This document shows, piece after piece, positions 2,231-55,838 of a stretch of DNA of 64,000 bases (the first letter of the stretch is position 1; every line of letters begins with the position of its first letter). A model generated the notes under the pieces. That model was not told the origin of the DNA and searched no databases. It saw only the letters and a list, made by a program, of their open reading frames with translations. The position numbers were made by a program, and so were the translations under genes. Origin of the DNA: an uncultured Anaerolineaceae bacterium. GTDB taxonomy: Bacteria; Chloroflexota; Anaerolineae; Anaerolineales; UBA11579. Location: positions 3,970 to 67,969 of the forward strand of contig CAZNFL010000004.1 of NCBI GenBank assembly GCA_964572455.1. The letters are read 5' to 3'.

Positions 2231-3087
2231 GTCTCCACTACCAGCAAGCGCGGCAGGCCGGCCAGGTCGGGGCGAACTGCAATGCGTGCCGCGGGCCACA
2301 GCTCCAGCGCCAGGTCCAGCACCGCGCCCTGCAGGCTGGCGTCGATCTCTGCCAAGATCAGCGCCTGCGGCGCTGTTTTGGTTTGTGCCTGCTGCAGGAA
2401 GGGTTCGATGAATCGCAGGCCATCCTCGCCGCCGCCCAGCGCAATGCGCGGCTCCCATTTGGAGACGGCCAGTTCGGGCAACCGGGCTTCAGGGATATAC
2501 GGAAGGTTGGCGCAGATCATATCGAAAGGTCCGGCCATGTTCTCTAATAGATCGCTCTTTACCAAATGAACGCGAGCTGGCAAGCTATACCTCTCCACAT
2601 TCGCTTTGGCCACCGCCAGTGCGCCTGTGGAAATGTCTCCGGCGACGATGCGCACATCAGGCACATTAATAGCCAGCGCCACCGGAATGCAGCCGGATCC
2701 GGTGCCCACGTCTGCAGCGCGGCGGCGGCCGGGGTGGGCCGCCAGCCAGGCCATTGCAGTCTCCACCAGCAGCTCGGTCTCCGGCCGCGGGATGAGTACG
2801 TCGGGAGTAACGTTCAATTTGAGGCCAAAAAATTCCCATTCGCCGAGAATGTAGGGCAGCGGCTCACCGGTTTCCATTCGTGCCAGTCCGGCTTCAAATC
2901 TGCGCCCCGCCGCTGCGTCGACTTTCGCTTCGGGGTGCGCCAGCAGCCAGGCGCGCTCGGCGCCCAGCGCGCTGGCCAAGAGCACCTCACTGTCCAAGCC
3001 GGGATTCTCGCTACGGCCGGCCAGCCGCTGGCGAGCGGCAGCCAGGGTGGCGGCGATAGTTTGTGCGCCTAATTTGGAAGCTGCCAT
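2227..3087 (-). CDS. prmC: release-factor glutamine N5-methyltransferase (HemK/PrmC)
   Basis: 286 aa. SAM motif DVGTGSGCI. Catalytic tetrapeptide reads NLPY (ICANLPYIP) instead of NPPY. Lies downstream of prfA. Confidence 0.85.
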   Translation of the reverse strand: MAASKLGAQTIAATLAAARQRLAGRSENPGLDSEVLLASALGAERAWLLAHPEAKVDAAAGRRFEAGLARMETGEPLPYILGEWEFFGLKLNVTPDVLIPRPETELLVETAMAWLAAHPGRRRAADVGTGSGCIPVALAINVPDVRIVAGDISTGALAVAKANVERYSLPARVHLVKSDLLENMAGPFDMICANLPYIPEARLPELAVSKWEPRIALGGGEDGLRFIEPFLQQAQTKTAPQALILAEIDASLQGAVLDLALELWPAARIAVRPDLAGLPRLLVVET

Positions 3088-3150
3088 GGCTGTGATTCTA
3101 GCAGAGGCCAGCTGGCGCTTTGGTTGATGCTGATTAAAACCGTTTTAGGA

Positions 3151-3180
3151 GATTAATCGATTAATTGATTGATCGATTGC
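3151..3180. repeat. tandem array of palindromic octamer GATTAATC (about 4 units)
   Basis: GATTAATC GATTAATT GATTGATC GATTGC. Ends exactly at the prfA stop codon (3181-3183). Confidence 0.75.
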
Positions 3181-4242
3181 TCATGCACTAACCGTCGCCA
3201 ACCGTTCGGCCTCATCCTGGGTGGCTAGTTCCTCCAGCAGCTCATCCAGCTCGCCGTCCAGGAAGGCCGGCAAATTGTGCGAGGTGAAGCCGATGCGGTG
3301 ATCGGTTACCCGCGATTGGGGGAAATTGTAGGTGCGGATCTTTTCGGAGCGTTCGCCGCTGCCCACCTGCAGCTTGCGGGTCTGCTCGATCGCCGAGCGG
3401 CGCTTTTCCTCTTCCATCTCGTAAAGCCGGGCGCGCAAGATGGCCATCGCCCGCAGCCTATTTTGCAGCTGGGAGCGCTCGTCCTGGCATTGCACCACGA
3501 TGCCAGTGGGGATATGGGTTAGCCTAACGGCCGTGGAGTTCTTCTGTACGTTCTGCCCGCCGGCACCCGCCGAACGATAGACGTCCATCTTCACGTCGCT
3601 GTCGGGGATCTTGATCTCGACTTCGTCTACTTCGGCCAGAACGGCCACCGTGGCCGTGGAGGTGTGGATGCGGCCCTGGGCTTCGGTGGCGGGCACGCGC
3701 TGCACGCGGTGCACCCCGGATTCGAACTTGAGCCGGGAGAAAGCGCCTTTGCCCTTGATCAGCATCGTAGCTTCCTTGAAGCCGCCCACGCCGGTCTCGC
3801 TGCCGCTCATCAGCTCCGTCTTCCAACCCTCGCGCTCGGCGTACCGGGCGTACATGCGGTAAAGGTCGGCGGCGAACAAGCCGGCTTCGTTGCCGCCGGT
3901 GCCGGCGCGGATCTCCATGATCACGTTGCGGTTATCGCGCGGGTCTTTGGGCACCAGCAAGCTCTTGATCTCATTTTCCAGCGCTGGGATCTCGGCCTCC
4001 ACCTCCGCCAGCTCCGCCGAGGCAAGCTCGGCCAGCTCGGCGTCGCCGCTGTCGATCACTGCCTGCGCTTCCTGCTTGCGTTTCAGCGCGTCGCGATATT
4101 TGCGTATCTTGCCGATGATGGGTTCCAGCTCGGCGCGTTCCTTGGATAGCTCAACGGTGCGCTGGTAGTTGGCGGCGGGCAGCTGCAATTCGCGCTCGAT
4201 CTCGTCGAAGCGCGCTTCAATACCGGAAAGTTTGTCGAGCAT
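3181..4242 (-). CDS. prfA: peptide chain release factor 1
   Basis: 353 aa. RF1-specific PAT tripeptide (RVPATE). GGQ motif (SAGAGGQNVQK). Confidence 0.95.
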   Translation of the reverse strand: MLDKLSGIEARFDEIERELQLPAANYQRTVELSKERAELEPIIGKIRKYRDALKRKQEAQAVIDSGDAELAELASAELAEVEAEIPALENEIKSLLVPKDPRDNRNVIMEIRAGTGGNEAGLFAADLYRMYARYAEREGWKTELMSGSETGVGGFKEATMLIKGKGAFSRLKFESGVHRVQRVPATEAQGRIHTSTATVAVLAEVDEVEIKIPDSDVKMDVYRSAGAGGQNVQKNSTAVRLTHIPTGIVVQCQDERSQLQNRLRAMAILRARLYEMEEEKRRSAIEQTRKLQVGSGERSEKIRTYNFPQSRVTDHRIGFTSHNLPAFLDGELDELLEELATQDEAERLATVSA

Positions 4243-4392
4243 GAATTAAGGCAACCTTGTTTATAGTGGGAACGGGATTATAGCAGTCGGGCGATAAGTT
4301 GCATATTGGTGCATTGTGGGCCGCGGATGCACGCCGACAAACGCAGATAAATAAAGGGTATCAGCGTTTATCGGCGGCTGTTTTTCGGAAAC

Positions 4393-12340: not shown

Positions 12341-13294
12341 GTGAGGCCGATCAATTTCGTATTTAGTTCGATAATTATCGCCGCCATCTGCACGGGCTGC
12401 CTGGCCGCTGCGGCCAGCGGGCTGGAGCCAGCTGCGGGCAGTGGACTTGCGTCTATCGAAGTCTCCACCCAAGCCGACCCGAGCCCGACATTGCAGGCTT
12501 TGATTCCCGCTCTGCAAGTGGACGTGGAGAAAGCGGACCCGACTCTCGCCCCAGCCAACTGGCAGGATTACCCGGTGGTGCCGCAACTCTCTCCGAGAGC
12601 CATTGAGATCTACCAGCAAGGTTTGCTGGTGGGCAACGACCCCCATCACTTTTCAAAGATCGGGGATTGCCAAAATATCACCACGTACTTCCTGAGCGCA
12701 TTCGAGGACCCGGATCTTTACACCCTGGGCGCAGATTACGCCGACCTGCAAGCCACCATCGATTGGTATTTCGGCTCTTTCTCGCGCGAAAGCCTGGCGG
12801 TAGCCGGCGGCCTCAACGTGGCGGCCGTGCTTTCGCCTGTCCGTGCTAACCGAGAGTTGTGTGAGCCGACCGAAAACTCGCTGGACTGCGAAGTGAGAGT
12901 CTACAATCCCAGCGTAGCCCTGGTGAGCTTCGAAGAAAATTGGAGCCAAAGCAGCCCTGAAGAATACGAAAAGCACCTGCGCACCATCATCGAATCCCTG
13001 ATCGCCGAGGGCGTGCTGCCCATCCTGGCCACCAAGGCGGACAACCTGGAGGGCGACCAGAGCATCAATGCCACCATCGCCAAACTGGCCACCGAGTACG
13101 AGATCCCGCTATGGAATTTTTGGCTGGCGGTGCAGCCTTTGCCCAGCCACGGGCTGCACGCGGACGGCTTTCACCTGACGCTGGCGGGCTCGCACTTCGA
13201 TGACCTGCTGCGCATGAAAAAGGCCTGGCCGTGGAGAAACTTGACCGCGCTGCAGGCGTTGGAAGCGGTGCGCTTAGGTGTATTGGGGGAATAA
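12341..13294 (+). CDS. SGNH-like protein with GDC motif, paralogue 2
   Basis: 317 aa, GTG start. FSKIGDCQN and ADGFHLT retained. Block III is degenerate (SFEENW). Collinear similarity to 10606..11550. Confidence 0.55.
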   Translation: MRPINFVFSSIIIAAICTGCLAAAASGLEPAAGSGLASIEVSTQADPSPTLQALIPALQVDVEKADPTLAPANWQDYPVVPQLSPRAIEIYQQGLLVGNDPHHFSKIGDCQNITTYFLSAFEDPDLYTLGADYADLQATIDWYFGSFSRESLAVAGGLNVAAVLSPVRANRELCEPTENSLDCEVRVYNPSVALVSFEENWSQSSPEEYEKHLRTIIESLIAEGVLPILATKADNLEGDQSINATIAKLATEYEIPLWNFWLAVQPLPSHGLHADGFHLTLAGSHFDDLLRMKKAWPWRNLTALQALEAVRLGVLGE

Positions 13295-13331
13295 CAATCG
13301 ATTAATCGATTAGTCAATTATTCGATTAGTC
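13294..13331. repeat. tandem array of palindromic octamer GATTAATC (about 5 units)
   Basis: (ac)AATC GATTAATC GATTAGTC AATTATTC GATTAGTC. Starts at the stop codon of 12341..13294, between convergent genes. Confidence 0.75.
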
Positions 13332-13354
13332 AAAAGACCTAATCCCGCGTAAAT

Positions 13355-24477: not shown

Positions 24478-24944
24478 GCCACCAGGAGTATTACCTCACC
24501 GCGGAAGGCGCCGAGCGCCTGCGCAAAGAGCTGGCCGAGCTCAAGGGGCCGCGGCGCACCGAACTGGCCCAGCGGCTGCGCACCGCCATCCAGCAGGGCG
24601 ACCTTTCGGAGAACGCCGATTACTCCAAGGCCAAGGAAGACCAGGCCTTCCTCGAGGGCCGCATCCAGGAATTGGAAACCTTGCTGAGCCGGGCTGAAAT
24701 TATTTCGGCGAGCGGATCCCCGACCGGGGTGATCGGGCTTGGGTCCGTGGTCCTAATCCGCGAGAAAGGCCGCGAGCCGGTGAAATATTTCCTGGTAGGC
24801 GCACAGGAAGCTGACCCGCGCAACGGCCGCATCTCACACGAGTCGCCCATCGGGCGGGTGCTGATCGGCCACAAAGCAGGCGAGACGGTGAAAGCGCAAA
24901 CGCCTGCGGGGGAATTAAGTTTCGAGATCGTTGAAGTTGAGTAA
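24474..24944 (+). CDS. greA: transcription elongation factor GreA
   Basis: 156 aa from ATG 24474 (ATGA overlap with the dgt stop). YLTAEGAERLRKEL...GDLSENADYSKAKE. Confidence 0.9.
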   Translation: MSHQEYYLTAEGAERLRKELAELKGPRRTELAQRLRTAIQQGDLSENADYSKAKEDQAFLEGRIQELETLLSRAEIISASGSPTGVIGLGSVVLIREKGREPVKYFLVGAQEADPRNGRISHESPIGRVLIGHKAGETVKAQTPAGELSFEIVEVE

Positions 24945-24946
24945 AT

Positions 24947-25010
24947 CCCTAATCAATTAATCCAATAATCGGTTAATCGATTAGCTGATTAACCGATTAG
25001 CTGATTGATT
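24947..25010. repeat. tandem array of palindromic octamer GATTAATC (8 phased units)
   Basis: CCCTAATC AATTAATC CAATAATC GGTTAATC GATTAGCT GATTAACC GATTAGCT GATTGATT. It fills the whole gap between the convergent stops of greA (24944) and 25011(-). Confidence 0.8.
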
Positions 25011-26048
25011 TTATATCTTAGACCAGACCGCCAACTCGAGCGTGGCGCGCTCGAAGAAGCTGTCTTCCGGCATCGGCCCTTCGCCATATTGCATGTCTAC
25101 CACGCGGGCCACCATTTGCAAGGTGGCCGTCTCAAGCACCATCTCCACGCCCGGCCTGGCCAGCACGGGCTCGCCCTTGGCGGAGAGCCGCTCGCGGGCG
25201 GCATCATCGCGGAAGAGATGGTTGCTCATCAGCACCTTGGTCACGGTCTGGATATCGTTCTTATCGAACAGCCAGATCTCGAAGGCGGAGACGCGTTTGG
25301 GGTTGCCCACGCCGATGGTCTCGGCGATGCTGACGCCGCATTCGCCCATGAACTCGCCGGCCGGCGAGTCGATGCTGTAGGAATCGTCGTACAGGTCGTC
25401 GCCTTGGACGTAATTGGTCATCCATTGGGAGAGCGGCGGAGAATCCGCTCCCGCGCCGGGTTCGGCCAACTCGGTTTGCTGGGCGGCCGCGCGGGTCTTG
25501 AGGATGCCGGGGCGCAGTTCGTCGCCTTGGCGGCTGCGCACAATATAGAGCACACCTAACACCAGGCCGATCACCAGGGTAATGCCGCACAGGGTGGTGA
25601 GGAGAGTCCCTGTGCTGAAAATCGATCCGTCGCCTTCCGCGGGAGCTGGCGCGTCATCGACAGGCGGGGCTGTGCCGCCAAGCAAGGCCTGGAAGCGGGC
25701 AATGGTTTCCACGCTTTGTACCCCGGGCGCGGATGCTACCGCCGCCATGGTCTCGTCCACCCGCGCGCCTAGGGCGGCCAGGCGCTGGCGGGCCAGCGTG
25801 TCGTCGGGGCGCTGGGTGTAGGAGTCGACCGCGGCGCGCAAGTAATCGGCGCGCAGGGCCGGGCTCAGCTCGGCGGCGGAGGCATTCTCCCAGTCCACAG
25901 GGAACAGCCACCAGCCCAGCACCACCAAGCCGACGATCAGGCCGCCCACAAAGGCAGCAATGGCCAGCGTGCGCGGCTCGCTCAGGGAGGCGAGATTTAG
26001 GTTCTTCGGCAAGGAGAGGCGCGGCTTGGTTTGGCCCGTAGGTTCCAT
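25011..26048 (-). CDS. two-TM membrane protein, function unknown
   Basis: 345 aa from ATG 26048 (AGGAG 6 nt upstream). TM helices at about aa 30-55 and about aa 170-195. Conserved-looking C-terminal soluble domain. The track extension to 26270 runs through the RNA motif. Confidence 0.6.
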   Translation of the reverse strand: MEPTGQTKPRLSLPKNLNLASLSEPRTLAIAAFVGGLIVGLVVLGWWLFPVDWENASAAELSPALRADYLRAAVDSYTQRPDDTLARQRLAALGARVDETMAAVASAPGVQSVETIARFQALLGGTAPPVDDAPAPAEGDGSIFSTGTLLTTLCGITLVIGLVLGVLYIVRSRQGDELRPGILKTRAAAQQTELAEPGAGADSPPLSQWMTNYVQGDDLYDDSYSIDSPAGEFMGECGVSIAETIGVGNPKRVSAFEIWLFDKNDIQTVTKVLMSNHLFRDDAARERLSAKGEPVLARPGVEMVLETATLQMVARVVDMQYGEGPMPEDSFFERATLELAVWSKI

Positions 26049-26107
26049 CAATACTCCTAGTTGGTCATTGTAGATGAGCGGCTGTAAATGCGCAACTTTT
26101 GAGCCGT

Positions 26108-26163
26108 GCGATTGCTTCGCAATCGCCCGAGAACCTACTCGGCGTTGCCGAGTAACGATTCTC
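26108..26163 (+). ncRNA. candidate structured RNA motif, copy 1 (hairpin + nested hairpin)
   Basis: GCGATTGC-ttc-GCAATCGC, then GAGAA-cc-TACTCGGC-gtt-GCCGAGTA-acga-TTCTC. About 140 nt upstream of ATG 26304. Strand is inferred from the position of copy 2. Confidence 0.4.
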
Positions 26164-26303
26164 CAACGGATGTTCGTGCTGAAGCACAACCTCCATTCTC
26201 CAATAAGAGCTGACGAAAAAGTAGGGCGTGGGTTATTCGTCTTTCCGAAGGCCGCCTGGGATAAAATCAAGCCGGTCTGCTCTCCTGAGCAGCAAAAGTC
26301 CAG

Positions 26304-28439
26304 ATGCCCGAACCCAGTGTCCTAGACTACCTTAAGGCCTTGCTTTCGTTTGGGCGCAGGCGACTTCCTTCTGTCCCGACGTTGCCGAAAACGGCGACGA
26401 AGGCTGCGCGGCCTGCGCAGCCGCGGGCCGCGGCGAGGTCGGCGGCTCGCAAGCCTCGTTCGCTGGTCTCCCTTCCCTGGCGCAGCGGCCTGGCGCTCTT
26501 GCTCTTCTTCAGCGCGCAATTATTTTGGCTGCCGCCGCATTCCTCCTGGCAGATTGGGGTCCTCGCCATGCTGGCGGGGGTGGTTTTAGCAGTCTTTGCG
26601 GCGCGGCATGGGGAATGGCGGCTGCCTCAGATCGAACCCATAAAGATAGACAGGAAGAATCTACACTTTAGGCGTTTGCCGCTGGGGCTCGGGCTACTGT
26701 GTTTTGCGCTAACCCTCCTTTTTTCCGGTGACAATCGTTTTACCGGATTGAATATCTTTTTCTGGGTGCTCAGCCTTGGTTTCGTCCTGGCTGCCTTTTG
26801 GCAGTTCGATCAGAGCCCACGGGCGACCTGGAAAAAGTTCAGAACCGGTGTACAGCGGCGCGACTGGCTTTTACACGTCTCGCGCTGGACCCTGGTGTTG
26901 CTGGCCGTCTTCGCCATCATCGCCTTCTTCCGCTTCTCGCAACTGGAAACCCTACCGGCGGAGATGAACAGCGATCATGCCGAGAAGTTGCTGGATATGA
27001 GCGATATCTTCGCGGGCCAGACTTCCATCTTCTTCGAGCGCAACACGGGCCGCGAACCCCTCCAGTTCTATGTGACCGCGGCCGTGGCGGGAATTTTGGA
27101 TACTGGCATTTCCTTTTTAAGCTTGAAGATCGGTACTGTCCTTCTGGCTTTCATGTCCCTCATTTATATGTACTTGCTGGGCAGGGAATTTGGCGGGCGC
27201 TGGGTGGGCTTGTTTGCGTTGCTCTTGGTCGGCATGGCCTTTTGGCCCAATCTGTTGGCGCGCACCGGACTGCGCTTCTCGTTGTATACCACCTTTGCTG
27301 CGCCGACGTTGTATTATCTGCTGCGCGGCCTGCGGCGCAGCCACCTGAATGACTTCCTGTTGTGCGGCGTATTCATGGGCATCGGGCTCAACGGCTACTC
27401 GGCTTTTCGCATCGTGCCGATAGTGGCCGGCGTGGCGCTGTTGCTATCCTTGTGGCATACGCCCAGCCCAGAACTTCGCCGGCGCGGGCTGATCGGCTTT
27501 GCCCTGCTGGCGCTGGTGGCTTTGGTCGTCTGTGCTCCCTTGCTGCGCTACGCTGTCGAGCACCCCAGCGCGTTCAGCGAGCGCATGTTTACGCGCATAT
27601 TTGAAACCGAGCGGCCTTACCCTGCGCCCGTGTTGATCACCCTCGCCAGCAATGTTGGAAGCGGCCTGGCGATGTTTAACTTCTCCGGCGGCCGGATCTG
27701 GCTGGTGGGGATAGAAGATGCCCCGGCCTTTGACCTGATCTCAGCCGGGTTGCTGCTGCTGGGCGCCGTGCTGGCTATCCTGCGGTATGCACGCAACCGT
27801 TCCTGGCTCGATCTTTTCCTGCTGCTCTCGATCCCGCTGCTCATGCTGCCATCCACGCTCTCGTTAGCGTTCCCTGAAGAGAACCCGGCGATGAACCGGG
27901 CCAGCGGCGCTTGGATCCCGGCTTTCATCCTGTGCGCACTGGGGCTGGATGCTTTCCTGCACGGCTTGCGCGATAGGCTGGGTGATAAACTCGGTTTGCA
28001 CGTCGCGCAGGTGAGCGGCGCTCTGATCTTCTTGTTTGCCGCACTGCTCAACTACAACTTGTTCTTCCATAGTTATGTTAATCAATACGATAACTCTTCC
28101 TGGAACACATCCGAACTCGGGAAAGTCATCGCCGATTATGCCGGCAGCTTCGGCAGCTACGACAGCGCCTGGGTGGTGGCCTATGCCCATTGGGTGGATA
28201 CGCGCCTGGTCGGTATGAATGCCGGCAACACCACCCGCGATTACGGCATCTGGCCGGACCAGTTGAGCACGACATTGGCCATACCCGCGCCTAAGCTGTT
28301 CCTGGTGAAGATCGATGATCAACTCGGACTGGAAACATTAAAGCAGCTGTATCCGGAAGGGTTGATCAGCAACAAGCCCAGCCGCCTGCCGGGCAAAGAA
28401 TTCATCACCTTTTTTGTGCCTGAACAGCCCAACCCCTAA
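26304..28439 (+). CDS. polytopic GT-C-like (PMT/ArnT-type) membrane protein
   Basis: 711 aa. Basic Ala/Pro/Arg-rich N-tail followed by more than 10 hydrophobic helices. Acidic loop motif LPAEMNSDHAEKLLDMSD. C-terminal soluble domain. Confidence 0.55.
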   Translation: MPEPSVLDYLKALLSFGRRRLPSVPTLPKTATKAARPAQPRAAARSAARKPRSLVSLPWRSGLALLLFFSAQLFWLPPHSSWQIGVLAMLAGVVLAVFAARHGEWRLPQIEPIKIDRKNLHFRRLPLGLGLLCFALTLLFSGDNRFTGLNIFFWVLSLGFVLAAFWQFDQSPRATWKKFRTGVQRRDWLLHVSRWTLVLLAVFAIIAFFRFSQLETLPAEMNSDHAEKLLDMSDIFAGQTSIFFERNTGREPLQFYVTAAVAGILDTGISFLSLKIGTVLLAFMSLIYMYLLGREFGGRWVGLFALLLVGMAFWPNLLARTGLRFSLYTTFAAPTLYYLLRGLRRSHLNDFLLCGVFMGIGLNGYSAFRIVPIVAGVALLLSLWHTPSPELRRRGLIGFALLALVALVVCAPLLRYAVEHPSAFSERMFTRIFETERPYPAPVLITLASNVGSGLAMFNFSGGRIWLVGIEDAPAFDLISAGLLLLGAVLAILRYARNRSWLDLFLLLSIPLLMLPSTLSLAFPEENPAMNRASGAWIPAFILCALGLDAFLHGLRDRLGDKLGLHVAQVSGALIFLFAALLNYNLFFHSYVNQYDNSSWNTSELGKVIADYAGSFGSYDSAWVVAYAHWVDTRLVGMNAGNTTRDYGIWPDQLSTTLAIPAPKLFLVKIDDQLGLETLKQLYPEGLISNKPSRLPGKEFITFFVPEQPNP

Positions 28440-28441
28440 TC

Positions 28442-31400
28442 ATGCCAAAGACTCAACGTACTTCAACCCATTCGTGGATCAATAACGTTCTGTTTGTGCT
28501 GGTCCTGCTGGCGGCTGCCTACCTGCGCCTGGTGGGAATTGATTGGGACGAGGACCAGCATCTGCATCCCGACGAACGCTTCCTCACCGGCGTAGTGGCC
28601 AGCCTGGAGTCAGTGGACGGGTTGGGCGAATATTTCGACACGGCCAACTCCACCCTCAATCCTAACAACCGCGGCGCCGGGTTCTTCGTCTATGGAACCT
28701 TGCCGGTCTTCATGGTGCGCTACGTGGCCGAAGCGGTCGGCAGCACCGGTTACGACCAGATCCATTTGGTTGGACGAGCCCTCTCTGCCCTGGCCGACCT
28801 GGGCGTGGTGGCTCTGGTGTATTTCATTGGCTCGCGCCTGGTGGATAAGCGCGTCGGTTTGCTTGCCGCAGTTTTCTCGGCCTTCGCCGTGATGCAGATC
28901 CAGGAGTCCCATTTTTGGACTGTGGACAATTTCGTCAACTTCTTCACCTTGCTGGCCTTATTTTTCGCCATCCGCATAGCTAGCTATGGTTCGCGGCCTA
29001 AAGAAAAGGGCGCATTCACCCCTTGGGATCTTGTGGGCTTCGGCCTCGCGCTCGGGTTTGCGTTGGCCTCCAAGGTCAGCGTAGCCCCGCTGGCGCTAAC
29101 CTTGCCGGCCGCGGTGATCGTGCGCCTGCTGGCCTTGCCACGTGAGCAACGCGCCGCCCACATTTCTTCTTCGTTTTGGTGGATGTTGCTTGCCGCCGGC
29201 CTGAGCGCACTAACCTTTCGTGTCTTTCAGCCTTACGCTTTTCAAGGAGTGGGGCTGGGAGGCTGGCTGAGCAACATCGGGGCGTCCTGGCAAGCCTCTG
29301 AAGGCCTCGTCATATTCGACCGGCTCAAGCAGTTAATCATCGCAATCCTGGGCTTGAACCCGCATTGGGTGGACACCATGTCTTCCCTCGCTGCCCAGGT
29401 GAGCGGGGACGCCGACTGGCCGCCTTCCATGCAATGGGCGCGGCGGCCACTGTGGTTCGGGCTGCAAAATATCGTCCAATGGGGCTTGGGATGGCCGCTG
29501 GCGCTGGTCTGCCTGGCCGGCTTGGCTTGGGCTGGCTGGCGCATTTACAAAGGCGAATGGCGCAATCCCGCGGTTATTTTGTGGGGGTGGGGCGCCTTCT
29601 ATTTCCTGTGGCAGTCCTCTGCCTTTAACCCTACCATGCGTTATTTCCTGCCCTTCTATCCTGTGCTGGTTATTTTCGGCGCGTGGGCGGTCATCAGTTT
29701 ATGGGATGCCGGCGCAGCGCGCCCCAAACCGCGCGGTAAGAAGGGATTTCAGTGGCCGGCCTGGGCCCGCCCGGCGGCCGGAGTGCTGGGCGCGGTTACA
29801 GTCCTCGGCGCAGGGCTGTGGGCCTGGGCTTTCGTGCAGATCTACCAACAGGATGTTTCCCGCTTGGAAGCAACGCGCTGGATCTACCAGAATTTGCCTG
29901 GTCCGATCACGATGACTTTTGAAAAAGATGGTGGGGAGGTCAACCAGCCCTTGCCTTTATCCTATGGTCAGGTGATTAGCCCGGAAACGCCGCTCTTTAT
30001 AACTTACTTTCCAAAGGAAGAGGGGCAGCTCACCCAGATCACGCTTAAGCACGTGCTGGCCCCGGTCCAGTTGGAAATCCGCAACTGGGCTGCGGGCGAA
30101 ACGGTCTTGACTCATTTGAACCAGATCGTCGACCTGGAAAACATGCAGCTAGGGCAGGTGAACGAGATTGCCTTCGAAATCCCTACTGACCTGCTCATCG
30201 ATCCGACTGCCCAATACCAATTGCTGCTGCAGTTGCCGGCTGGTCGCGGCCAGCTGCAGGTAAACGGCGTGGAATTGCGTAACTCCCAGATTCCCGGCGT
30301 GCCCGGCAATCCACTGCTCCTCGAACCAGCGCCTGTGCGCATGGGAGAGACTTTGTCTCTGGCGTTTACCAATACCTTGAGCGTGGTCGCTGACCGGCTG
30401 TTCATCCGGTTAACCCCAAGCGAAGCGCTTTCGGTCGATTCCATCAACGCCCGGTTCACCCTCAGCAACGCCGAGAGCGGCCTGCTTGTGGAGCAAGGTT
30501 TGAAGTTGGATGTTTCCACTGACAGAGGCGCGCTGGGTAGCGAGCAGGTGATCGCGCTGCCCGCGCCGATCGCTTTGCAACCCGACCGACCATTAACACT
30601 GCAGCTTTCCGTCGCATCAGGCGCGCTGACTCTGCTGGGCACGACGATGGCGAATGAGACCAGCTGGGATGACGGCCTGCCGCGGCGCATGGATGGCTAT
30701 GATGGATTTGGTGGCATCTATCAGGGCGATCTGAATTTTGAGATGTACTGGGACTCCGACGCGGCCAAGTTGGCGCGCTTCCTGGATATTCTCGACCGCG
30801 CCGAATACATTTTCATCAGCTCCAATCGCCAGTGGGGCAGCCTGCCGCGCCTGCCGGAACGCTTCCCACTGGTGACCGCTTATTACCGCTCCCTCATCGG
30901 CTGCCCCGAAGGCGAATCCATCGAATCCTGTTTTATCAATGCCCAGGTCGATAATACTCACAGCGATTACGGCTTTGAGCTGATCCAGGTTTTCGAGAAC
31001 GCACCTCAGCTTGGCCCGTGGACGATAAATGACCAGGGCGCCGAAGAAGCTTTCACCGTCTACGACAATCCCAAGGTATTCATCTTCCGCAAGACGGCAG
31101 ATTTCGACGCTGAGAAGTGGGCGGCAACCCTCTCTCAAGTTGATTTAACCAAAGTGATCCACCTCACTCCCAAACAGGCCGCAGGCGGAATGCTGCCGAA
31201 CTTGCAGCTGCCCGCGGAACGGTTGGAAGCCCAGCGCGCCGGCGGCACCTGGTCGGAGTTGTTCGATACTGAATCCTGGATCAATATCTCCCCTTGGGTC
31301 AGCGCCCTAGTCTGGTATTTGGCCCTAGCTGCGCTGGGCTTGGCGGTTTATCCCCTGGTGCGCTGGGCTCTGCCCGGCCTCAAGGATGGCGGCTATCCCT

Positions 31401-33715
31401 TTGCGCGTCTGGTGGGCTTGCTATTGCTCTCCTATCTGGCCTGGATGGGAGGCTCGCTGGGGCTGGCCTTCAGCCGCGGCTGGCTGGCAGCCTTTGCGCT
31501 GCTGTTGCTGCTGGCTGGCGGCGCGGCAGCCTGGTTCCATCGCGACGAGCTGCAGCGCGAATGGAAAACCAAACGTGCGATCTTCCTGCGCACTGAGGTG
31601 CTTTTCCTAGCTTTCTTCCTATTGATGTTGGTAATCCGCATCGCCAATCCCGACCTGTGGCATCCGGCATTCGGCGGCGAGAAGCCCATGGACTTTTCCT
31701 ATTTCAATGCGGTGCTCAAGAGCACCAGCTTCCCGCCTTATGACCCTTGGTTTGCCGGCGGATATATCAACTATTACTACTACGGCTTTGTGTTGGTCGG
31801 CTCGCTGGTCAAGCTGTTGGGCATCGTACCGGCGGTGGCCTACAACCTAATCCTGCCATCCCTATTCGCCATGCTGGCGCTCGGCGCCCACAGCGTTGCC
31901 TGGAATCTTTGGACAGCTTGGAAAGCGCGCGAAGGAAAGGCTACGCGCATCTCGCCGGAGATAGTCGGCCTGACCGCAGCCGTTGCCGTGCTGATCCTGG
32001 GCAACCTGGGCAGCATCGATCTGCTCCTTGTCTCCTACGCCAAGATGGGCGCAGAGGGCGCCTACAGTCCCGACAGCGGCTTTCTCACCCAATGGGGGTG
32101 GATTCTGCGGGGCTTTATTATGTCGCTTAGTGGCCAACCCTTCCAGATCGGCCGCGGCGATTGGTATTGGAATCCCACCCGCATAATTCCAGCCCCGGGC
32201 GAAACCGGGCCGATCTCGGAATTTCCCATATTCACATTCACCTATGCAGACCTGCATGCCCACATGATCGCCCTGCCGGTGACTGTGTTGGGACTGGCCT
32301 GGTCGCTGTCGGCCATCCTCAGCCGGGCCTGGTCCGGCCTTAAAAATAAAGGCCAGGTGGCTGCCTCGTTAATTTTAGGCGCCATCATCTTGGGCAGCCT
32401 GCGACCGATTAATACCTGGGACCTGCCCACTTATTTGCTGCTGGCTATGTTGGCGGTGGGCTACGCCTTATGGCGCTATGGCCCGAAGGTCAAGGGGGGG
32501 CGTGGGAAGCCGCGCCCGACCTGGCAGCTGGCGCTGCGCGGAATGGCTGCGCTGGGTATCTTAAGTGTGCTTGCCTATCAACCTTTTGCTAGTTGGTACC
32601 GGCAGGGTTATTCCAGCATTGAACTTTGGACCGGCACGCATACTCCAACCAGTCCTTACCTGATGCACTGGGGCATTTTCCTGTTCTTCATTATTGCTTG
32701 GCTGGTTTGGGAAACGCGCCAATGGATGGCCGTCACTCCGCTGTCCTCCATTCGAAGGCTGGAGAAATATAGTTATCTGCTCATCGCTGCTGGGACTTTT
32801 TTCTTCTTCGCCTGGTTTTTGCTGTTTGGCCTGGGTGTTCACGTTGCTTGGTTTCTCTTTCCCCTTCTGCTTTGGGTCGGTCTGCTCTTCCTTCGCCCCG
32901 GGGTGGATGAAGCCAAGCGACTGGTCCTATTCCTGATCGGCACGGGTCTCTTCCTTACTTTGATGGTCGAGGTGATCCGCCTGCAGGGCGATATCTCCCG
33001 CATGAACACCGTATTCAAGTTCTACTTGCAAGCCTGGGTGCTGCTGGGCATCGCAGCGGCCTTTGCCCTAGCCTGGACTCTGGACGGATTGCGCCATTGG
33101 CTGCCAGCCTGGCGCGGGGCATGGTCAACGGTCGCGGTGTTCCTACTAGGCTTTGGCGCGCTCTTCATACTGCAGGGCGTCACCGCCAAGGCCGGCGATC
33201 GCATGGTGGCCGAAGCGCCGCACACGCTGGACGGCATGGCTTATATGCAATATGCGGTTTATTTCGATCGGGACCGGGCGCTGAACCTAAGCCAGGATTA
33301 CGCCTCCATCCGCTGGATGCAAGAGACCGTTCAGGGTTCGCCGGTGATCGTTGAGGCGAACACCGGCGAATATCGTTGGGGTTCGCGCTTCACTATTTAC
33401 ACGGGCTTGCCCTCTGTCGTGGGCTGGAACTGGCACCAGCGCCAGCAGCGCGAGTTCGTGCCGGGCAATGATGTTCAAGGGCGGGTGAACGAGATTGAGG
33501 CTTTCTATCTTTCCTTCGACCTAAACTTGGTGCGCGACTTTTTGCAAAAATACCAGGTGAAATACATTATCGTGGGCCAACTGGAACGCGCCTATTACCC
33601 GGGCGCGGAGTTGGATAAGTTCGAGGCGCAAGACGGTGTGCTGTGGCAAGAGGTGTACCGCCTCAACGACACTGTGATCTACGAAGTGCTTGACACCACC
33701 TTAGCCGGGGATTGA
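28442..33715 (+). CDS. giant membrane protein: GT-C-like N-module + large non-hydrophobic central domain + Chlor_Arch_YYY (DUF2298) module
   Basis: 1757 aa. N-module loop motif DWDEDQHLHPDERF. About 450-aa hydrophilic region. C-module GEKPMDFSYFNAVLKS...PPYDPWFAGGYINYYYYGF. Confidence 0.75.
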   Translation: MPKTQRTSTHSWINNVLFVLVLLAAAYLRLVGIDWDEDQHLHPDERFLTGVVASLESVDGLGEYFDTANSTLNPNNRGAGFFVYGTLPVFMVRYVAEAVGSTGYDQIHLVGRALSALADLGVVALVYFIGSRLVDKRVGLLAAVFSAFAVMQIQESHFWTVDNFVNFFTLLALFFAIRIASYGSRPKEKGAFTPWDLVGFGLALGFALASKVSVAPLALTLPAAVIVRLLALPREQRAAHISSSFWWMLLAAGLSALTFRVFQPYAFQGVGLGGWLSNIGASWQASEGLVIFDRLKQLIIAILGLNPHWVDTMSSLAAQVSGDADWPPSMQWARRPLWFGLQNIVQWGLGWPLALVCLAGLAWAGWRIYKGEWRNPAVILWGWGAFYFLWQSSAFNPTMRYFLPFYPVLVIFGAWAVISLWDAGAARPKPRGKKGFQWPAWARPAAGVLGAVTVLGAGLWAWAFVQIYQQDVSRLEATRWIYQNLPGPITMTFEKDGGEVNQPLPLSYGQVISPETPLFITYFPKEEGQLTQITLKHVLAPVQLEIRNWAAGETVLTHLNQIVDLENMQLGQVNEIAFEIPTDLLIDPTAQYQLLLQLPAGRGQLQVNGVELRNSQIPGVPGNPLLLEPAPVRMGETLSLAFTNTLSVVADRLFIRLTPSEALSVDSINARFTLSNAESGLLVEQGLKLDVSTDRGALGSEQVIALPAPIALQPDRPLTLQLSVASGALTLLGTTMANETSWDDGLPRRMDGYDGFGGIYQGDLNFEMYWDSDAAKLARFLDILDRAEYIFISSNRQWGSLPRLPERFPLVTAYYRSLIGCPEGESIESCFINAQVDNTHSDYGFELIQVFENAPQLGPWTINDQGAEEAFTVYDNPKVFIFRKTADFDAEKWAATLSQVDLTKVIHLTPKQAAGGMLPNLQLPAERLEAQRAGGTWSELFDTESWINISPWVSALVWYLALAALGLAVYPLVRWALPGLKDGGYPFARLVGLLLLSYLAWMGGSLGLAFSRGWLAAFALLLLLAGGAAAWFHRDELQREWKTKRAIFLRTEVLFLAFFLLMLVIRIANPDLWHPAFGGEKPMDFSYFNAVLKSTSFPPYDPWFAGGYINYYYYGFVLVGSLVKLLGIVPAVAYNLILPSLFAMLALGAHSVAWNLWTAWKAREGKATRISPEIVGLTAAVAVLILGNLGSIDLLLVSYAKMGAEGAYSPDSGFLTQWGWILRGFIMSLSGQPFQIGRGDWYWNPTRIIPAPGETGPISEFPIFTFTYADLHAHMIALPVTVLGLAWSLSAILSRAWSGLKNKGQVAASLILGAIILGSLRPINTWDLPTYLLLAMLAVGYALWRYGPKVKGGRGKPRPTWQLALRGMAALGILSVLAYQPFASWYRQGYSSIELWTGTHTPTSPYLMHWGIFLFFIIAWLVWETRQWMAVTPLSSIRRLEKYSYLLIAAGTFFFFAWFLLFGLGVHVAWFLFPLLLWVGLLFLRPGVDEAKRLVLFLIGTGLFLTLMVEVIRLQGDISRMNTVFKFYLQAWVLLGIAAAFALAWTLDGLRHWLPAWRGAWSTVAVFLLGFGALFILQGVTAKAGDRMVAEAPHTLDGMAYMQYAVYFDRDRALNLSQDYASIRWMQETVQGSPVIVEANTGEYRWGSRFTIYTGLPSVVGWNWHQRQQREFVPGNDVQGRVNEIEAFYLSFDLNLVRDFLQKYQVKYIIVGQLERAYYPGAELDKFEAQDGVLWQEVYRLNDTVIYEVLDTTLAGD

Positions 33716-36144
33716 TGGACCAACTGCTGGCCACGGTCCTCTGGTATCTGCTGGTGGCCAGCTTCGGCTGGCTCAGCTTTCCGATCGCCTATCGCTTCCT
33801 AAAGGCTCTTCCGGACCGCGGCTACGCATTTGCGCGTGCGCTGGGCCTGCTGCTGTGGGGCTTCATCTTCTGGACGCTCAGCAGCTATGGGCTGCTGCAA
33901 AATAATCCGGGCGGCCTGATCACCGCCGCCGTGCTGCTGGCTGCGCTCAGTTGGTGGGCCTGGCGCCAGCTGCCTCCCGGTGAGCTGCGCGCCTGGCTGC
34001 GTGCTCATCGCTCCCTGGTGGTCGCCATGGAACAGGTCGTTTTGGTGGCCTTTGTCTTCATGGCCTTCGTGCGCTTCTCTCGCCCCGAGATCTTTCACAC
34101 CGAGCAGCCCATGGAGTTGGCTTTCATCAACGCCATCCTGCGCTCGCCTTCCATGCCGCCGCACGACCCTTGGCTGGCTGGCTTTTCCATCTCTTATTAT
34201 TACTTCGGCTATTTGCTGGTGGCCATGCTGGCCAAGTTGGTAGGGGTCACTGGCTCGATCGCCTTCAATCTGGGCTTCATCACCATCTTTGCTTCTGCAG
34301 CCTTGGGCGCGTACGGGTTTGCCTATAACCTGCTTTCACTTTACAAACCCAAAGCCCAACGCGCCCTGTTGCGGCTGGCCTGCCTGGCTCCGCTATTTGT
34401 CTTGGTGCTGGGCAATGGGGAGGGCCTGCTGGAGTTGGCCCACGCTCGGCATGCGTTTTGGAGCGCGGATCCTGCCGGCGCGCAGACCTCGGGTTTCTGG
34501 ACCTGGTTGGACGTCGAGGACCTGACTAATCCGCCAAGCGCCGAACCCAGATGGACGCCGCGCAACTACGGCACCGGTTTTTGGTGGTGGTGGCGGGCTT
34601 CGCGGGTCATCAATGATCAGACCTTCAGCGGCGGTGACCAGGAATTGATCGACGAGATCCCCGCCTTTTCGTTCACCCTGGGGGACCTTCATCCCCACGT
34701 GTTATCCATGCCCTTCATTATGTTGGCGGTGGGCCTGGCTCTGAATGTCTATCTTGGAGGCGCCGAGCGCAAAGAGCCGCTGCGATTCTTCAAGCTCAGG
34801 ATCGAGCCGGAGTTTTTACTGTTTGCGACTATTGTCCTTGGCGCCCTGGCCTTCCTGAACATTTGGGACTTTCCTATCTATGTGGGCTTGTTCGCACTGG
34901 CCTATGTTTTGCGCAACGCTCAGCAGGCGGGCTGGTCTTGGGAACGCGGCTTTGAGTTGGTTCGCCTGGCGCTTCTTCTATTAATTGGCGGTGTGCTGCT
35001 CTACCTGCCTTTCTATGTGGGATTCACCTCTCAGGCGGGAGGCATTCTGCCAAATTTGCTCAACCCCTCGCGCGGCGTTCACCTGTGGATCATGTTCGCC
35101 ACCTTGTGGATACCGCTCTTTGCCTATTTGCTTTTCTTGTGGCGCCGCGAGGCGACCTGGTCTCGCCTCCTGACCAATATTCTCTTTGGGCTGGGTTTCG
35201 TGGCCGGACTGTGGCTGGTTTCGCTGCTGATCTCCTGGGTGTATGCCACGTTGTTTGCGGGCGGCGCGCTGGGGCAGGCCCTGTCTAGCTTGGGGGCGGC
35301 TGATCTTGGCAACCTGCTCGCGGTCTCCGTCAGCCGCCGGCTGGCGGCCGCCGGCGGCTGGCTGACCTTGAGCATCCTCTTGGGAGTCGCCTTCGGCCTA
35401 TTAGTCAAACCTGCCGCAAAAAAGGAAGCAGGCACTGCACCGTTTGCAGCGCGTACCTTCGTGATCCTGCTCGTGTTTTTGGGCGCCCTGCTGGTCACTG
35501 CGCCGGAATTCGTCTATCTGCGCGACCAGTTTGGCACGCGCATGAACACAGTCTTCAAGTTTTACTTTCAGGCCTGGCAGCTTTGGGCTGTCGCTGCGGC
35601 TGTGGCTTCGGTGATGTTGTTGCAAGAATTGCGCAGTTGGGGCCGCGTCCTGTTTGCCGTGCTGCTGAGCTTGATGTTGGCCACGGGTCTCATTTATCCA
35701 TTCTTCTCCTTTTCGGATATCACCGGCAATCCTGTGGGCAGCCTGGACGGCGCCAGCTACCTCTCGCCCGAAGTGGTCCAGGGCATCCAGTGGCTGCAGC
35801 AAGCGCCGCTCGGCACGCTGGTGGAAGCCGTCGGTGGCAGCTATGACGCCAACTTTGCGCGCTACTCTACCCACAGCGGGCAGCCCGGCTTGATGGGCTG
35901 GCCCGGTCACGAAGGCCAGTGGCGCGCCGGCAACGTGGATTGGGCGCGCATCGATGATATTCAAGTGCTTTTTTCGGCAGCCGATTGGCAGACCGCGCAG
36001 GTCATCCTGGATAAATACGACGTCAGGTACCTGGTCGTGGGCGAGTGGGAGAGAAACAGTTACCTGGTTTCTGAGAGCCTGTTTGCCGAAAACTTGATCG
36101 TTGCCTTTCAAAATCCCAGCGTGACCATTTACCAAGTCCCGTAG
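33715..36144 (+). CDS. Chlor_Arch_YYY (DUF2298) family membrane protein
   Basis: About 809 aa. EQPMELAFINAILRS...PPHDPWLAGFSISYYYFGY. ATG 33715 (or TTG 33712) overlaps the upstream TGA at 33713-33715. Confidence 0.75.
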   Translation: MDQLLATVLWYLLVASFGWLSFPIAYRFLKALPDRGYAFARALGLLLWGFIFWTLSSYGLLQNNPGGLITAAVLLAALSWWAWRQLPPGELRAWLRAHRSLVVAMEQVVLVAFVFMAFVRFSRPEIFHTEQPMELAFINAILRSPSMPPHDPWLAGFSISYYYFGYLLVAMLAKLVGVTGSIAFNLGFITIFASAALGAYGFAYNLLSLYKPKAQRALLRLACLAPLFVLVLGNGEGLLELAHARHAFWSADPAGAQTSGFWTWLDVEDLTNPPSAEPRWTPRNYGTGFWWWWRASRVINDQTFSGGDQELIDEIPAFSFTLGDLHPHVLSMPFIMLAVGLALNVYLGGAERKEPLRFFKLRIEPEFLLFATIVLGALAFLNIWDFPIYVGLFALAYVLRNAQQAGWSWERGFELVRLALLLLIGGVLLYLPFYVGFTSQAGGILPNLLNPSRGVHLWIMFATLWIPLFAYLLFLWRREATWSRLLTNILFGLGFVAGLWLVSLLISWVYATLFAGGALGQALSSLGAADLGNLLAVSVSRRLAAAGGWLTLSILLGVAFGLLVKPAAKKEAGTAPFAARTFVILLVFLGALLVTAPEFVYLRDQFGTRMNTVFKFYFQAWQLWAVAAAVASVMLLQELRSWGRVLFAVLLSLMLATGLIYPFFSFSDITGNPVGSLDGASYLSPEVVQGIQWLQQAPLGTLVEAVGGSYDANFARYSTHSGQPGLMGWPGHEGQWRAGNVDWARIDDIQVLFSAADWQTAQVILDKYDVRYLVVGEWERNSYLVSESLFAENLIVAFQNPSVTIYQVP

Positions 36145-36199
36145 CGTTGCTTTGCAACGCTGGGAGAAATCTACTCGCCGAAGGCGAGTAACGATTCTC
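36143..36199 (+). ncRNA. candidate structured RNA motif, copy 2
   Basis: AGCGTTGC-ttt-GCAACGCT, then GAGAA-atc-TACTCGCC-gaa-GGCGAGTA-acga-TTCTC. Begins within the stop codon of the upstream gene. Compensatory changes relative to copy 1. Confidence 0.4.
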
Positions 36200-36242
36200 C
36201 AGCCTGATTTATTCCTCAAGCGCAAAACCCGCTCGACTATAA

Positions 36243-37952
36243 TTGATGGTAGCCATGGCGCAACCATCCCTATTAAGTCGCGAATACTTCTTCTATTCTC
36301 TAATTATCCTGCTCGCCCTAGCCTTGCGATTCGCCAGCCTGGGTGGGCCTCCACTAAACGAATTCGAAGCCTCAGCCGCCTTGCCCGCCTCTGATTTGGC
36401 ATCCGGCGGCCAGCCCGCCCTCGGTGAGCAACCCGCCTACGTACTGCTGACCAGCTTGCTCTTTGGTCTCTTTGGCAGCAGCGAATTCCTGGCTCGCTTT
36501 TGGCCGGCCTTGTTTGGGCTGGCGCTGGTGGCGCTTCCATATTTCTGGCGTGATCTGCTGGGCAAAAAAGTTGCTCTGCTGTTGGTTTTCTTTCTGGCGA
36601 TCGACCCGGGCTTGGTGGCCGTCTCGCGCCTGGCTGCGGGTTACATGCTGGCGCTGTCTGCCGCCCTGATGGCCCTGACGGCCTGGCGCTATCGCCGCCC
36701 GGTCTTAGCCGGCTCGCTTGCCGGTTTGGCCTTGCTGTCTGCCCCAACGGCCTATTTCGGGCTGGGCGCGGCTGCTCTAGTCTGGGTCAGGCTAAGGAAA
36801 GCTATCCGTGTAGATAGGGCGGCGTTGCGCTCCGCGGCCCTGGCTGCATTGGTAGTTTTGCTATTGGGGGGCACCTTGCTGTTCAATGTGCCCCAGGGAT
36901 TAGCTGGCGCTGGCCAGGCCCTCGCCTCCTTTTTTTTCGGCGCCCCAAACTTCCCGGGGTCAAGTCTAAGCTTGACCTTATTTGCCCTGCTAGGCTATTC
37001 CCTGCCCGCGCTGATCTTTGGCGGCCTCGGCGCCTGGCGCAGCTGGAGGCTGGGCGAACCTTTGGGCAAAGCGCTCTCCCTGTTTGCCGCCTATGCTTTC
37101 TTGCTTGTTTTGATCAATCCAAACCGCCAGGTGGCCGATCTTTTGTGGGTCCTGCTGCCCCTTTGGGTTTTGGCAGCCCAGGTGGTCAGCATCTATTTGC
37201 GTACGCCTGAAGACGAACCGGTGGCTGCCGTTGGCCAGGCTGCCTTGATGCTTTTGCTGGCCGCCTTTTTGGTGCCCACCCTGGCGCGCATCGCCGATAC
37301 GGGATTTTTGCTGGTCCCAGCTCCGGACACCCCGCTGCCGGTCATTTCGTCTCACGGAGTGATCGCCCTCTTTGTCTTGGGCATCGCCGGCCTGGCCACC
37401 GCGCTGATCGCCCTAGGCTGGTCGCGCCGGGCCGCCGCCCAGGGGTTGGTGTGGGCTTTGGCGCTAGTCTTTGTGTTGTTCCTATTGTCTGCTAGCAGCC
37501 GGTTTTCTCGCTTGGAGACCGCGGCCGCCAACGAGTTGTGGTCGCCCGGCCTTGCCGCCGGGCAACTGGGCATTCTGCGCGAAACTCTGGCCGACCTGTC
37601 CTTCTGGGATCAAAGGCAGCCTGCGGCCATCTCCATTGAGTTGCGCAGCGAAAGCGCTGCCTTGCGCTGGGCTTTGCGCGATTTTCAGGTGGCCTCCAGT
37701 TCTGCACCTCCGGCCGTTGCGATCACGACCGGCGTGGGCGAGACCCCCGCCGAATTTGTGACCTATCGGGGCCAGAGTTTCGCCCTCAGCGTCCAACGCA
37801 CCTGGGAGAGCTGGCCCCCCAACTTCTTTGCTTGGCTGTTGTTTCGCCAGGCGCCCACGCAAAGCCAGCAACTCATTCTGTGGGCGAATGCCGATTTGTT
37901 TGCGGATGCCGCCTCTTTTGATCAAAGTTCTCCCGAGGGCGAGACACCCTAG
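36243..37952 (+). CDS. polytopic GT-C-like membrane protein
   Basis: About 565 aa (TTG 36243, ATG 36246 or ATG 36255). LRFASLGGPPLNEFEASA first-loop motif. More than 10 hydrophobic helices. C-terminal soluble domain. Confidence 0.55.
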   Translation: MMVAMAQPSLLSREYFFYSLIILLALALRFASLGGPPLNEFEASAALPASDLASGGQPALGEQPAYVLLTSLLFGLFGSSEFLARFWPALFGLALVALPYFWRDLLGKKVALLLVFFLAIDPGLVAVSRLAAGYMLALSAALMALTAWRYRRPVLAGSLAGLALLSAPTAYFGLGAAALVWVRLRKAIRVDRAALRSAALAALVVLLLGGTLLFNVPQGLAGAGQALASFFFGAPNFPGSSLSLTLFALLGYSLPALIFGGLGAWRSWRLGEPLGKALSLFAAYAFLLVLINPNRQVADLLWVLLPLWVLAAQVVSIYLRTPEDEPVAAVGQAALMLLLAAFLVPTLARIADTGFLLVPAPDTPLPVISSHGVIALFVLGIAGLATALIALGWSRRAAAQGLVWALALVFVLFLLSASSRFSRLETAAANELWSPGLAAGQLGILRETLADLSFWDQRQPAAISIELRSESAALRWALRDFQVASSSAPPAVAITTGVGETPAEFVTYRGQSFALSVQRTWESWPPNFFAWLLFRQAPTQSQQLILWANADLFADAASFDQSSPEGETP

Positions 37953-55747: not shown

Positions 55748-55800
55748 TTGCTTGACAATCGGCCTCAATTTGCCTCTAACCGCGCCTTTCATGCTATGTA

Positions 55801-55838
55801 GGGACAGGTCTATAGACCTGTCCGCTTTTTCTATTTTT
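55801..55838 (+). terminator. hairpin GGGACAGGTC-tata-GACCTGTCC + T-rich tail (likely folC terminator). Member of a 2-copy hairpin family.
   Basis: Followed by gctttttctattttt. A near-identical hairpin occurs at 61731-61753. Confidence 0.5.

Follow-up and report, generated by a model that had tools for sequence, protein, structure and literature searches.

Two folded elements of about 57 nucleotides (nt), alike in sequence and structure, occur at the GT-C operon of an uncultured Anaerolineaceae bacterium. Are they the regulatory RNA of that operon, or are they copies of something that has little to do with it? The first-pass annotation of the window (the 64,000-nt stretch of DNA analyzed here) took the differences between the two sets of stems, which are compensatory, as a sign of selection on RNA structure, for example, in a cis-regulatory leader, a processing site, or a protein-binding site that coordinates expression of the membrane-protein genes. 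We think it likely that the two motifs instead belong to a hairpin repeat, apparently undescribed, that is dispersed in Anaerolineae/Chloroflexota and is of the REP/RPE-like kind.

Two copies of a two-hairpin unit in the window

Both copies were found at the places and in the look-alike folds that had first been described, by pattern search as well as by a covariance model. Their extents, and that of the block in which copy 1 is embedded, are as follows.

26108-26164, + strand: copy 1, a two-hairpin repeat of ∼57 nt, with hairpin 1 at 26108-26126
36143-36201, + strand: copy 2, with hairpin 1 at 36143-36161, a clamp at 36163-36171 and 36193-36200, and an inner hairpin at 36172-36190
26105-26212: block of ∼108 nt made up of copy 1 and a 3′ tail, not present in the orthologous spacer of the 85%-identity relative L036

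The unit is a 7- to 8-bp hairpin followed by an interrupted hairpin of ∼16 bp. Hairpin 1 is GCGATTGC-ttc-GCAATCGC in copy 1 (26108-26126) and AGCGTTGC-ttt-GCAACGCT in copy 2 (36143-36161). In copy 1, an outer clamp in which GAGAA (26129-26133) pairs with TTCTC (26159-26163) encloses the inner hairpin TACTCGGC-gtt-GCCGAGTA (26136-26154), which is followed by an AC bulge (26155-26156). The clamp of copy 2, GGAGAA(A)TC/GATTCTCC, surrounds the inner hairpin TACTCGCC-gaa-GGCGAGTA (36172-36190). In the tail of the copy 1 block, GTGC-TGAA-GCAC (26176-26187) forms a small hairpin and ATTCTCCAA recurs (26195-26203); the tail is possibly a decayed second unit.

Copy 1 lies in a 255-nt divergent spacer between the gene of a 345-aa membrane protein (25011-26048, − strand), for which a family search gave no match, and a PMT_2-type GT-C gene (26304-28439); its placement ∼140 nt upstream of ATG 26304 in the first-pass annotation is correct. 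Copy 2 overlaps the gene of an 810-aa DUF2298 protein by 2 nt, the final AG of the TAG stop codon (36142-36144) serving as the start of hairpin 1. Its end lies 54 nt upstream of ATG 36255, the start of the following gene, whose 565-aa product has a weak match to TIGR03663/Agl23.

The shared 29-nt core, searched as the pattern CTACTCGNCNNNGNCGAGTAACGATTCTC with ≤3 mismatches, matched the window only at copies 1 and 2 and was expected nowhere by chance (no match in 100 shuffles). With filters disabled, the covariance model scored copy 2 at 74.1 bits and copy 1 at 66.9 bits, both on the + strand; tried at every position of the 64 kb, it found no third copy in the window, the next match being an unrelated one of 13 bits. 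Comparison with Rfam, foreseen in the first-pass annotation, matched no family: Rfam 15 gave nothing at gathering score in the window and nothing at E ≤ 1 within 25900-36500. Copies 1 and 2 are 66% alike. The nearest relative of copy 1 is the copy in an Anaerolineaceae metagenome-assembled genome (MAG), L001 (85%), and that of copy 2 is the copy in the orthologous locus L034 (88%). Since each is nearer to copies elsewhere, the two are not a local duplication, and we infer that they are independent insertions.

The unit is dispersed among unrelated genes

We found the family at ∼17 independent sites in Chloroflexota MAGs and metagenomes. A scan of species-representative genomes gave nine matches; seven, in archaea, Acidobacteriota, and others, were judged to be due to chance, and the real copies were L001, a full two-hairpin unit, and L005, from a Chloroflexota MAG. 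A scan of metagenome contigs in which the inner stem was left free gave 24 loci, ∼15 of them nonredundant, and a model built from 15 copies added, on the same contigs, an extra site in L020, a second copy in L024, and the third unit of a tandem array with a period of 90 nt. Two loci, L028 and L029, were set aside as chance matches (AT rich, no hairpin 1, 14 bits). The core pattern had no match in viral contigs, and a literature search for the core sequence gave only an unrelated primer.

The tandem array (L020, 6936-7166; also L013 and L018) has 2.6 units of 90 nt, each consisting of the 57-nt element and a 33-nt spacer that is repeated too, and it occupies a divergent spacer adjoining a class I tRNA synthetase gene. 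Other neighbors confirmed by Pfam are as diverse as FHA, rhomboid, EF-G, class II tRNA synthetase, sigma-70, an MFS transporter, lipoyl synthase, DUF1028, GtrA, and several methyltransferases. Orientation was scored where both flanking genes or the host gene was confirmed by Pfam/Rfam, and the orientation in which the window copies were first read served as the reference. Window copy 2 and L005 are sense copies, as is L024 relative to its one confirmed flanking gene, that of the downstream methyltransferase; L021, L030, L014, L032, and L043 are antisense, and several copies lie in divergent or convergent spacers. The members of the family share no common gene and have no fixed orientation. The observation that the element occurs both times at the GT-C operon is true of the window and does not extend to the family, whose neighbors are unrelated to one another. 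The annotation had named, as the picture that would speak against it, a simple repeat scattered in many copies and in both orientations, without gene association and without covariation; many copies, both orientations, and no gene association are what we see, and covariation is nevertheless present (see below).

MAGs from separate studies share a nearly identical core, a uniformity that is partly imposed by the exact-match search patterns; recent spread or strong sequence constraint is needed to account for it.

Locus L045 holds a cousin of the element (6851-6919, − strand), in which a small hairpin is followed by a perfect 17-bp hairpin, GGAGAAGCGGATTCTGC-TTC-GCAGAATCCGCTTCTCC. The cousin has the GGAGAA...TTCTCCA clamp of the family around a different inner sequence and stands directly after an MmeI-like restriction-modification gene. 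The common clamp makes a wider superfamily likely.

To gauge the number of copies in one genome, we turned to the contigs of the source permafrost metagenome. A copy 1 probe at 80% likeness found the window contig and two others, and a consensus-like probe (L023) found seven contigs, a result that speaks against a low copy number of two to four per genome. At least nine contigs in total bear the core, with depths of 8 to 12 compared with 9.95 for the window contig; judged by depth only, they would come from one genome. In three of them, the motif stands at a contig end, as is usual for repeats in assemblies built from de Bruijn graphs.

Gain and loss in orthologous GT-C operons

Might the element nevertheless be a cis-regulatory RNA specific to the GT-C/DUF2298 operon, coordinating its membrane-protein genes? 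Two of the known copies of this genome do flank genes of one operon, and one metagenome copy adjoins a GtrA gene. Most family members, however, adjoin unrelated genes, and the orthologous operons tell strongly against such a role. We compared eight loci (L034 to L041) around homologues of the 810-aa DUF2298 protein, from 90% to 54% identity, and found the gene order to be kept in all eight. At site 2, the copy is intact only in the two 90% relatives, L034 and L035 (66.4 bits). It is recognizably decayed at 85% (L036, 11 bits) and at 77% (L037) and absent from L038 to L041; in L039 (67%), no copy can be recognized and the spacer is still 110 nt long, and the spacer measures 39 to 48 nt in the distant operons. 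At site 1, the sole relative that covers the region, L036 (85%), is without the 108-nt block containing copy 1, and the sequences flanking the block can be aligned on either side. At the edges of the block there is only GAGC/AGC and no clear target-site duplication. The MAG that contributes both L005 and L039 (contig prefix JAMCZK01) has the element in a thiamine pyrophosphate (TPP) riboswitch and none in its GT-C operon. Together with the copies inside genes described below, these alignments show that the unit has been gained and lost at many unrelated sites.

The distant operons, lacking the element, keep both their gene order and their promoter boxes. Three promoter-like stretches lie close to the copies.

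26067-26095, − strand: putative divergent promoter of the 345-aa gene, with TTGCGC at 26095-26090, a 17-nt spacer, and TACAAT at 26072-26067
26260-26268, + strand: GATAAAATC, a −10-like box downstream of copy 1 and 36 nt upstream of the PMT_2 start codon (ATG 26304)
36235-36243, + strand: GACTATAAT, a perfect −10 hexamer, 11 nt upstream of the start codon of the 565-aa gene (ATG 36255)

GATAAAATC is unchanged across six orthologous loci, in the most distant of which the neighboring gene has 54% protein identity, and is probably a promoter element of the GT-C operon. It is kept even where the upstream gene is a codirectional methyltransferase gene and not the divergent membrane-protein gene. 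Copy 1 lies ∼95 nt upstream of this box and is therefore probably outside the operon transcript. The stretch with the divergent promoter is conserved in L036 and was not listed by a scanner with a stricter consensus; the copy 1 block starts 9 nt, and copy 1 itself 9 to 12 nt, upstream of the putative −35 element. Copy 1 would then sit between two divergent promoters. Seven orthologous loci have GACTATAAT without any change, even where the spacer is 39 to 48 nt long and holds no repeat. Its conservation and position suggest that the 565-aa gene has its own promoter and a nearly leaderless mRNA within the apparent operon. This box is downstream of copy 2, which in turn begins at the DUF2298 stop codon.

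An operon-specific RNA is therefore extremely unlikely: intact copies at site 2 are confined to two close relatives among eight, copy 1 is missing from the only relative that covers its site, and a related MAG carries the element elsewhere. The association with DUF2298/GT-C genes that the annotation proposed to test does not hold up in this comparison, since orthologous operons have no copies or decayed ones and the rest of the family sits beside unrelated genes. For a dispersed repeat, copy 1 would probably be without function for the GT-C operon, and copy 2 would be an older insertion, placed after the DUF2298 stop codon and before the next gene's own promoter. By analogy with REPs just after stop codons, any role of copy 2 may be at most incidental: it might stabilize the upstream mRNA from its 3′ end or hamper translation termination.

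A copy inside a TPP riboswitch

In L005, a genuine TPP riboswitch (312-489) upstream of genes for thiamine pyrophosphokinase and a thiamine-type ABC binding protein has an insert of 74 nt in its P3 loop, made up of the element and the hairpin that precedes it. The riboswitch scores 53.6 bits (E = 6.7e-10), just below the Rfam gathering score of 54.3 because of the insert, and annotation pipelines would miss it.

The L005 copy is certainly transcribed, within the riboswitch, and lends some support to a broader RNA hypothesis, in which the element is a modular RNA, active wherever it is transcribed and spread by duplication because it is useful. It might be a 3′ stem-loop that shields the upstream mRNA from exonucleases, an RNase III-type processing site, or a hairpin for an RNA-binding protein. 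Several sense copies stand directly after stop codons (window copy 2, L020:1335-1407, and L025), as does the cousin in L045. Opposed to this are the antisense copies between or inside confirmed genes (L021, L030, L014, L032, and L043), the position of copy 1 upstream of a conserved −10-like box, and the relatives that lose the element with the operon unchanged. The folds of the copies bear on the same question.

A constrained fold, possibly acting on the opposite strand

Compared with shuffled sequences, the two window copies fold well both as RNA (z scores of −4.2 and −4.7) and as DNA (−5.2 and −6.4), and the opposite strand of each folds equally strongly. In an alignment of 22 distinct copies, 95.7% of the stem cells are paired, and 10 of 23 pairs have changed on both sides. 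Both-sided changes occupy 25 cells, versus 3.3 in shuffles, and none of 500 shuffles reached the observed level; structures slid along the alignment did not come near the observed covariation either. The compensatory differences first noticed between the two window copies are thus real and hold across the family. Because the alignment was fitted to the covariance model and the copies are related by descent, the covariation means that the hairpins are maintained, not that they act as RNA. A folded nucleic-acid structure is under constraint, and in that respect the original claim of selection stands; a coordinating role for the GT-C genes, as a leader, processing site, or binding site in RNA, is not supported.

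Read on the opposite strand, the consensus is GGAGAATC-GT-TACYCGGC-GNA/GNNA-GCCGRGTA-GATTCTCC, followed by a short spacer and GCGTTGC-GAA-GCAACGC. The loop of hairpin 2 on this strand is G..A in 19 of 23 copies, with variable middle bases and a length of 3 to 4 nt (GAA, GTA, GCA, GTTA, GCTA, GCCA, and GACA), and hairpin 1 mostly has a GCGAAGC tip. Both window copies are without the typical G..A loop in hairpin 2, and hairpin 1 is flipped in the copy at L020:1335. GNA and GNNA loops with a sheared G·A closing pair, d(GCGAAGC) especially, form unusually stable DNA mini-hairpins. The G..A loops and the GCGAAGC tip suggest that the fold of the opposite strand matters, and they fit single-stranded DNA. 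That the active form is single-stranded DNA of this strand is suggestive only; wobble-type intermediates occur on both strands (three versus four cases) and so do not settle which strand is active.

Most copies begin with TGCG, TTGCG, or GTGCG. A GTAG start is seen only in window copy 2, by way of the stop codon, and in L034, and the copy at L020:1335 has CTAG. The tag 5′ of the inner stem is CGTT in all copies, which is partly fixed by the search pattern, and the 3′ end is ...CTCCA in 14 of 18 flanks. Two specific RNA readings were rejected: the AC bulge is not part of a K-turn, as the opposite strand is without tandem G·A pairs, and neither copy has a terminator-like site or U-tract that would make it an intrinsic terminator.

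For the modular RNA, then, the covarying stems and strong RNA folds count in its favor, and the lack of a U-tract terminator and the conservation of the G..A loop ends on the strand opposite to the sense copies count against it, as do the antisense copies. A search of RNA sequencing runs for the stretch gave no match. On balance we regard a modular RNA as unlikely.

The palindromes could also be double-stranded DNA operators, sites for a dimeric transcription factor that controls a regulon. They occur in promoter-proximal spacers, copy 1 being 9 to 12 nt upstream of the putative −35 element, and several copies lie in divergent intergenic regions. The compensatory changes, however, keep pairing within a strand and yet alter the sequence that such a protein would read, and the loop measures 3 to 4 nt. 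Moreover, copies are found inside coding regions and in a riboswitch loop, and the neighboring genes share no functional theme. We consider a family of operators very improbable.

In the reading that we prefer, a dispersed, selfish repeat, the hairpin would act as DNA, probably single stranded, on the strand with the G..A loops and the GCGAAGC tip, and it would be spread or homogenized by a trans-acting enzyme.

In-frame copies in AAA_25-wHTH ATPase genes

The unit also enters protein-coding sequence, as seen when filled genes (L014, L032, and L043) are compared with homologues that have no insert (P0123 to P0126 and L042). In L014, an ATPase gene with AAA_25 and wHTH domains (1356-2831) has an insert of ∼190 nt after the Walker A region; the insert holds two units and keeps the frame open (GESLLGASRVDSPTRCEAT and GESLLGVSRVDSPMRCEAT). 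The homologue in L032 (3789-4883; 36% identity) has one in-frame unit at the same loop, which is empty in its close homologues (88% and ∼80%). At the DNA level, 12 nt of L042 are replaced by 90 nt in L032; this filled/empty pair shows no clean target-site duplication and represents a replacement, not a clean insertion. A protein search uncovered a further copy (77 bits) in L043, at a different site, the linker of another AAA_25-wHTH homologue (3001-4308), and in L021 a copy follows, by 20 nt, the stop codon of a homologue without an insert. The coding strand in L014, L032, L043, and L021 is the one opposite to the reference orientation, i.e., the strand with the G..A loops. An in-frame unit adds the loop peptide GESLLGxSRVDSPxRCEAT.

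Three of the ∼15 loci found from the DNA pattern alone involve an AAA_25-wHTH gene, with the unit inside the gene or 20 nt after it. This association is far above chance. The excess may reflect an insertion-tolerant, fast-evolving gene, or it may reflect a functional tie.

Three other proteins, P0132, P0144, and P0155, have different repeat-derived in-frame inserts in the same loop after Walker A. The upstream neighbors of the ATPase genes in L014 and L032 are low-GC accessory genes (DUF5677 and a Panacea/SocA-like antitoxin); in L045, the upstream neighbor is the MmeI-like restriction-modification gene. In L043, a stand-alone gene for a 99-aa GIY-YIG protein (6490-6789) is located 2.4 kb downstream of the repeat-bearing AAA_25-wHTH gene; it had no NCBIfam match, and no copy of the repeat flanks it.

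Comparison with known repeats

REPs of the GTAG and CGTC classes are found inside genes, often genes of replication and repair (PMC3733652). Those with a CGTC tag correspond to the dRS3/NTS and SRM hairpins, which are cut by the Ssn GIY-YIG single-strand nucleases (Di Nocera et al. 2013, PMC3733652; Chenal et al. 2025, PMC11893778). In these, the tag is followed by a stem of 8 to 9 bp that opens with A/T pairs, by a short loop, and by a short tail near CCA (PMC3733652). The Anaerolineae repeat resembles them in being a short oriented hairpin with an 8-bp stem that starts with A/T (TACYCGGC/GCCGRGTA), a 3- to 4-nt G..A loop, a fixed nonpalindromic 5′ tag (here TCGT-T), and a ...CCA end, and in having copies both intergenic and inside genes. 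It differs in its tag, CGTT and not CGTC (partly fixed by the search), and in having an extra 8-bp clamp (GGAGAATC/GATTCTCC) and a second small hairpin. Membership among the Ssn SRMs was rejected: the published pattern, HGTCWY..., had 0 matches in the window, versus 0.5 expected.

Like the GTAG REPs and REPINs, the repeat forms an imperfect palindrome that compensatory changes preserve; it is dispersed, with some copies in tandem or in clusters, and often comes just after a stop codon. Unlike them, it has no general GTAG tag and no inverted doublets (REPINs) were seen, and its copy number is apparently in the tens, not hundreds. No gene for a RAYT (Y1 transposase) was found among the neighboring genes scanned. 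With the RPE of Ogata et al. (2000), as these are summarized in PMC3733652, the unit shares self-complementarity, in-frame copies in intact genes alongside intergenic ones, and presence or absence that varies between close homologues. Relative to that summary, its sequence and host phylum are unrelated, the unit is shorter (∼57 to 90 nt), and neither window copy lies in a gene. The unit is also like MITEs (Correia/NEMIS, ERIC, and RUP) in being small, nonautonomous, co-transcribable, and able to fold into a long hairpin; it differs in having no terminal inverted repeats that match an IS and no target-site duplication at the L032/L042 pair. More generally, no mobilizing enzyme, terminal inverted repeat, or target-site duplication was found at the loci examined.

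As a speculative extension, Anaerolineales might have an unrecognized REPtron-like system in which the repeat is the DNA substrate and the gene of the AAA_25-wHTH (RepA/RadA-like) ATPase is the partner or the preferred target. In such a system, a conserved trans-acting protein would read the invariant GGAGAATCGTTAC...GATTCTCC clamp on single-stranded DNA, which would explain the near identity of the core across distant MAGs. We hold this extension to be distinctly improbable.

The window contains other repeats as well. Three intergenic arrays with an 8-nt period, of the ATTAATCG/ATTAGTCA type, are located at 3144-3188, 13293-13345, and 24940-25008, the last ending just before the 25011-26048 gene. 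A 92-nt repeat of the GTCATTC...GAGCGAAGTCGAAGGAT type occurs at 911-1002 and 57850-57941 with 80% identity and has no match to the SRM pattern. A third, REP-like family is represented by two GTAG-tagged hairpins, GTAGGGACAGGT-loop-ACCTGTCC, at 55798-55827 and 61728-61757, which are 87% alike.

Implications

These results leave the GT-C operon without a dedicated structured leader and remove a tempting false lead; control is likely to be exerted at the two conserved −10-like boxes (26260-26268 and 36235-36243). They also make a more general point: a pair of nearby copies whose stems differ by compensatory changes is not, on that ground alone, a sign of a regulatory RNA. We conclude that the repeat is tolerated where a self-contained hairpin does little harm: in intergenic spacers, in the P3 loop of a riboswitch, and, in frame, in surface loops of proteins. 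The family is a clean example of one hairpin repeat that inhabits intergenic DNA, a variable stem of a riboswitch, and protein-coding genes in frame. New biology might come from only one of its aspects, the recurrent tie to AAA_25-wHTH ATPase genes.
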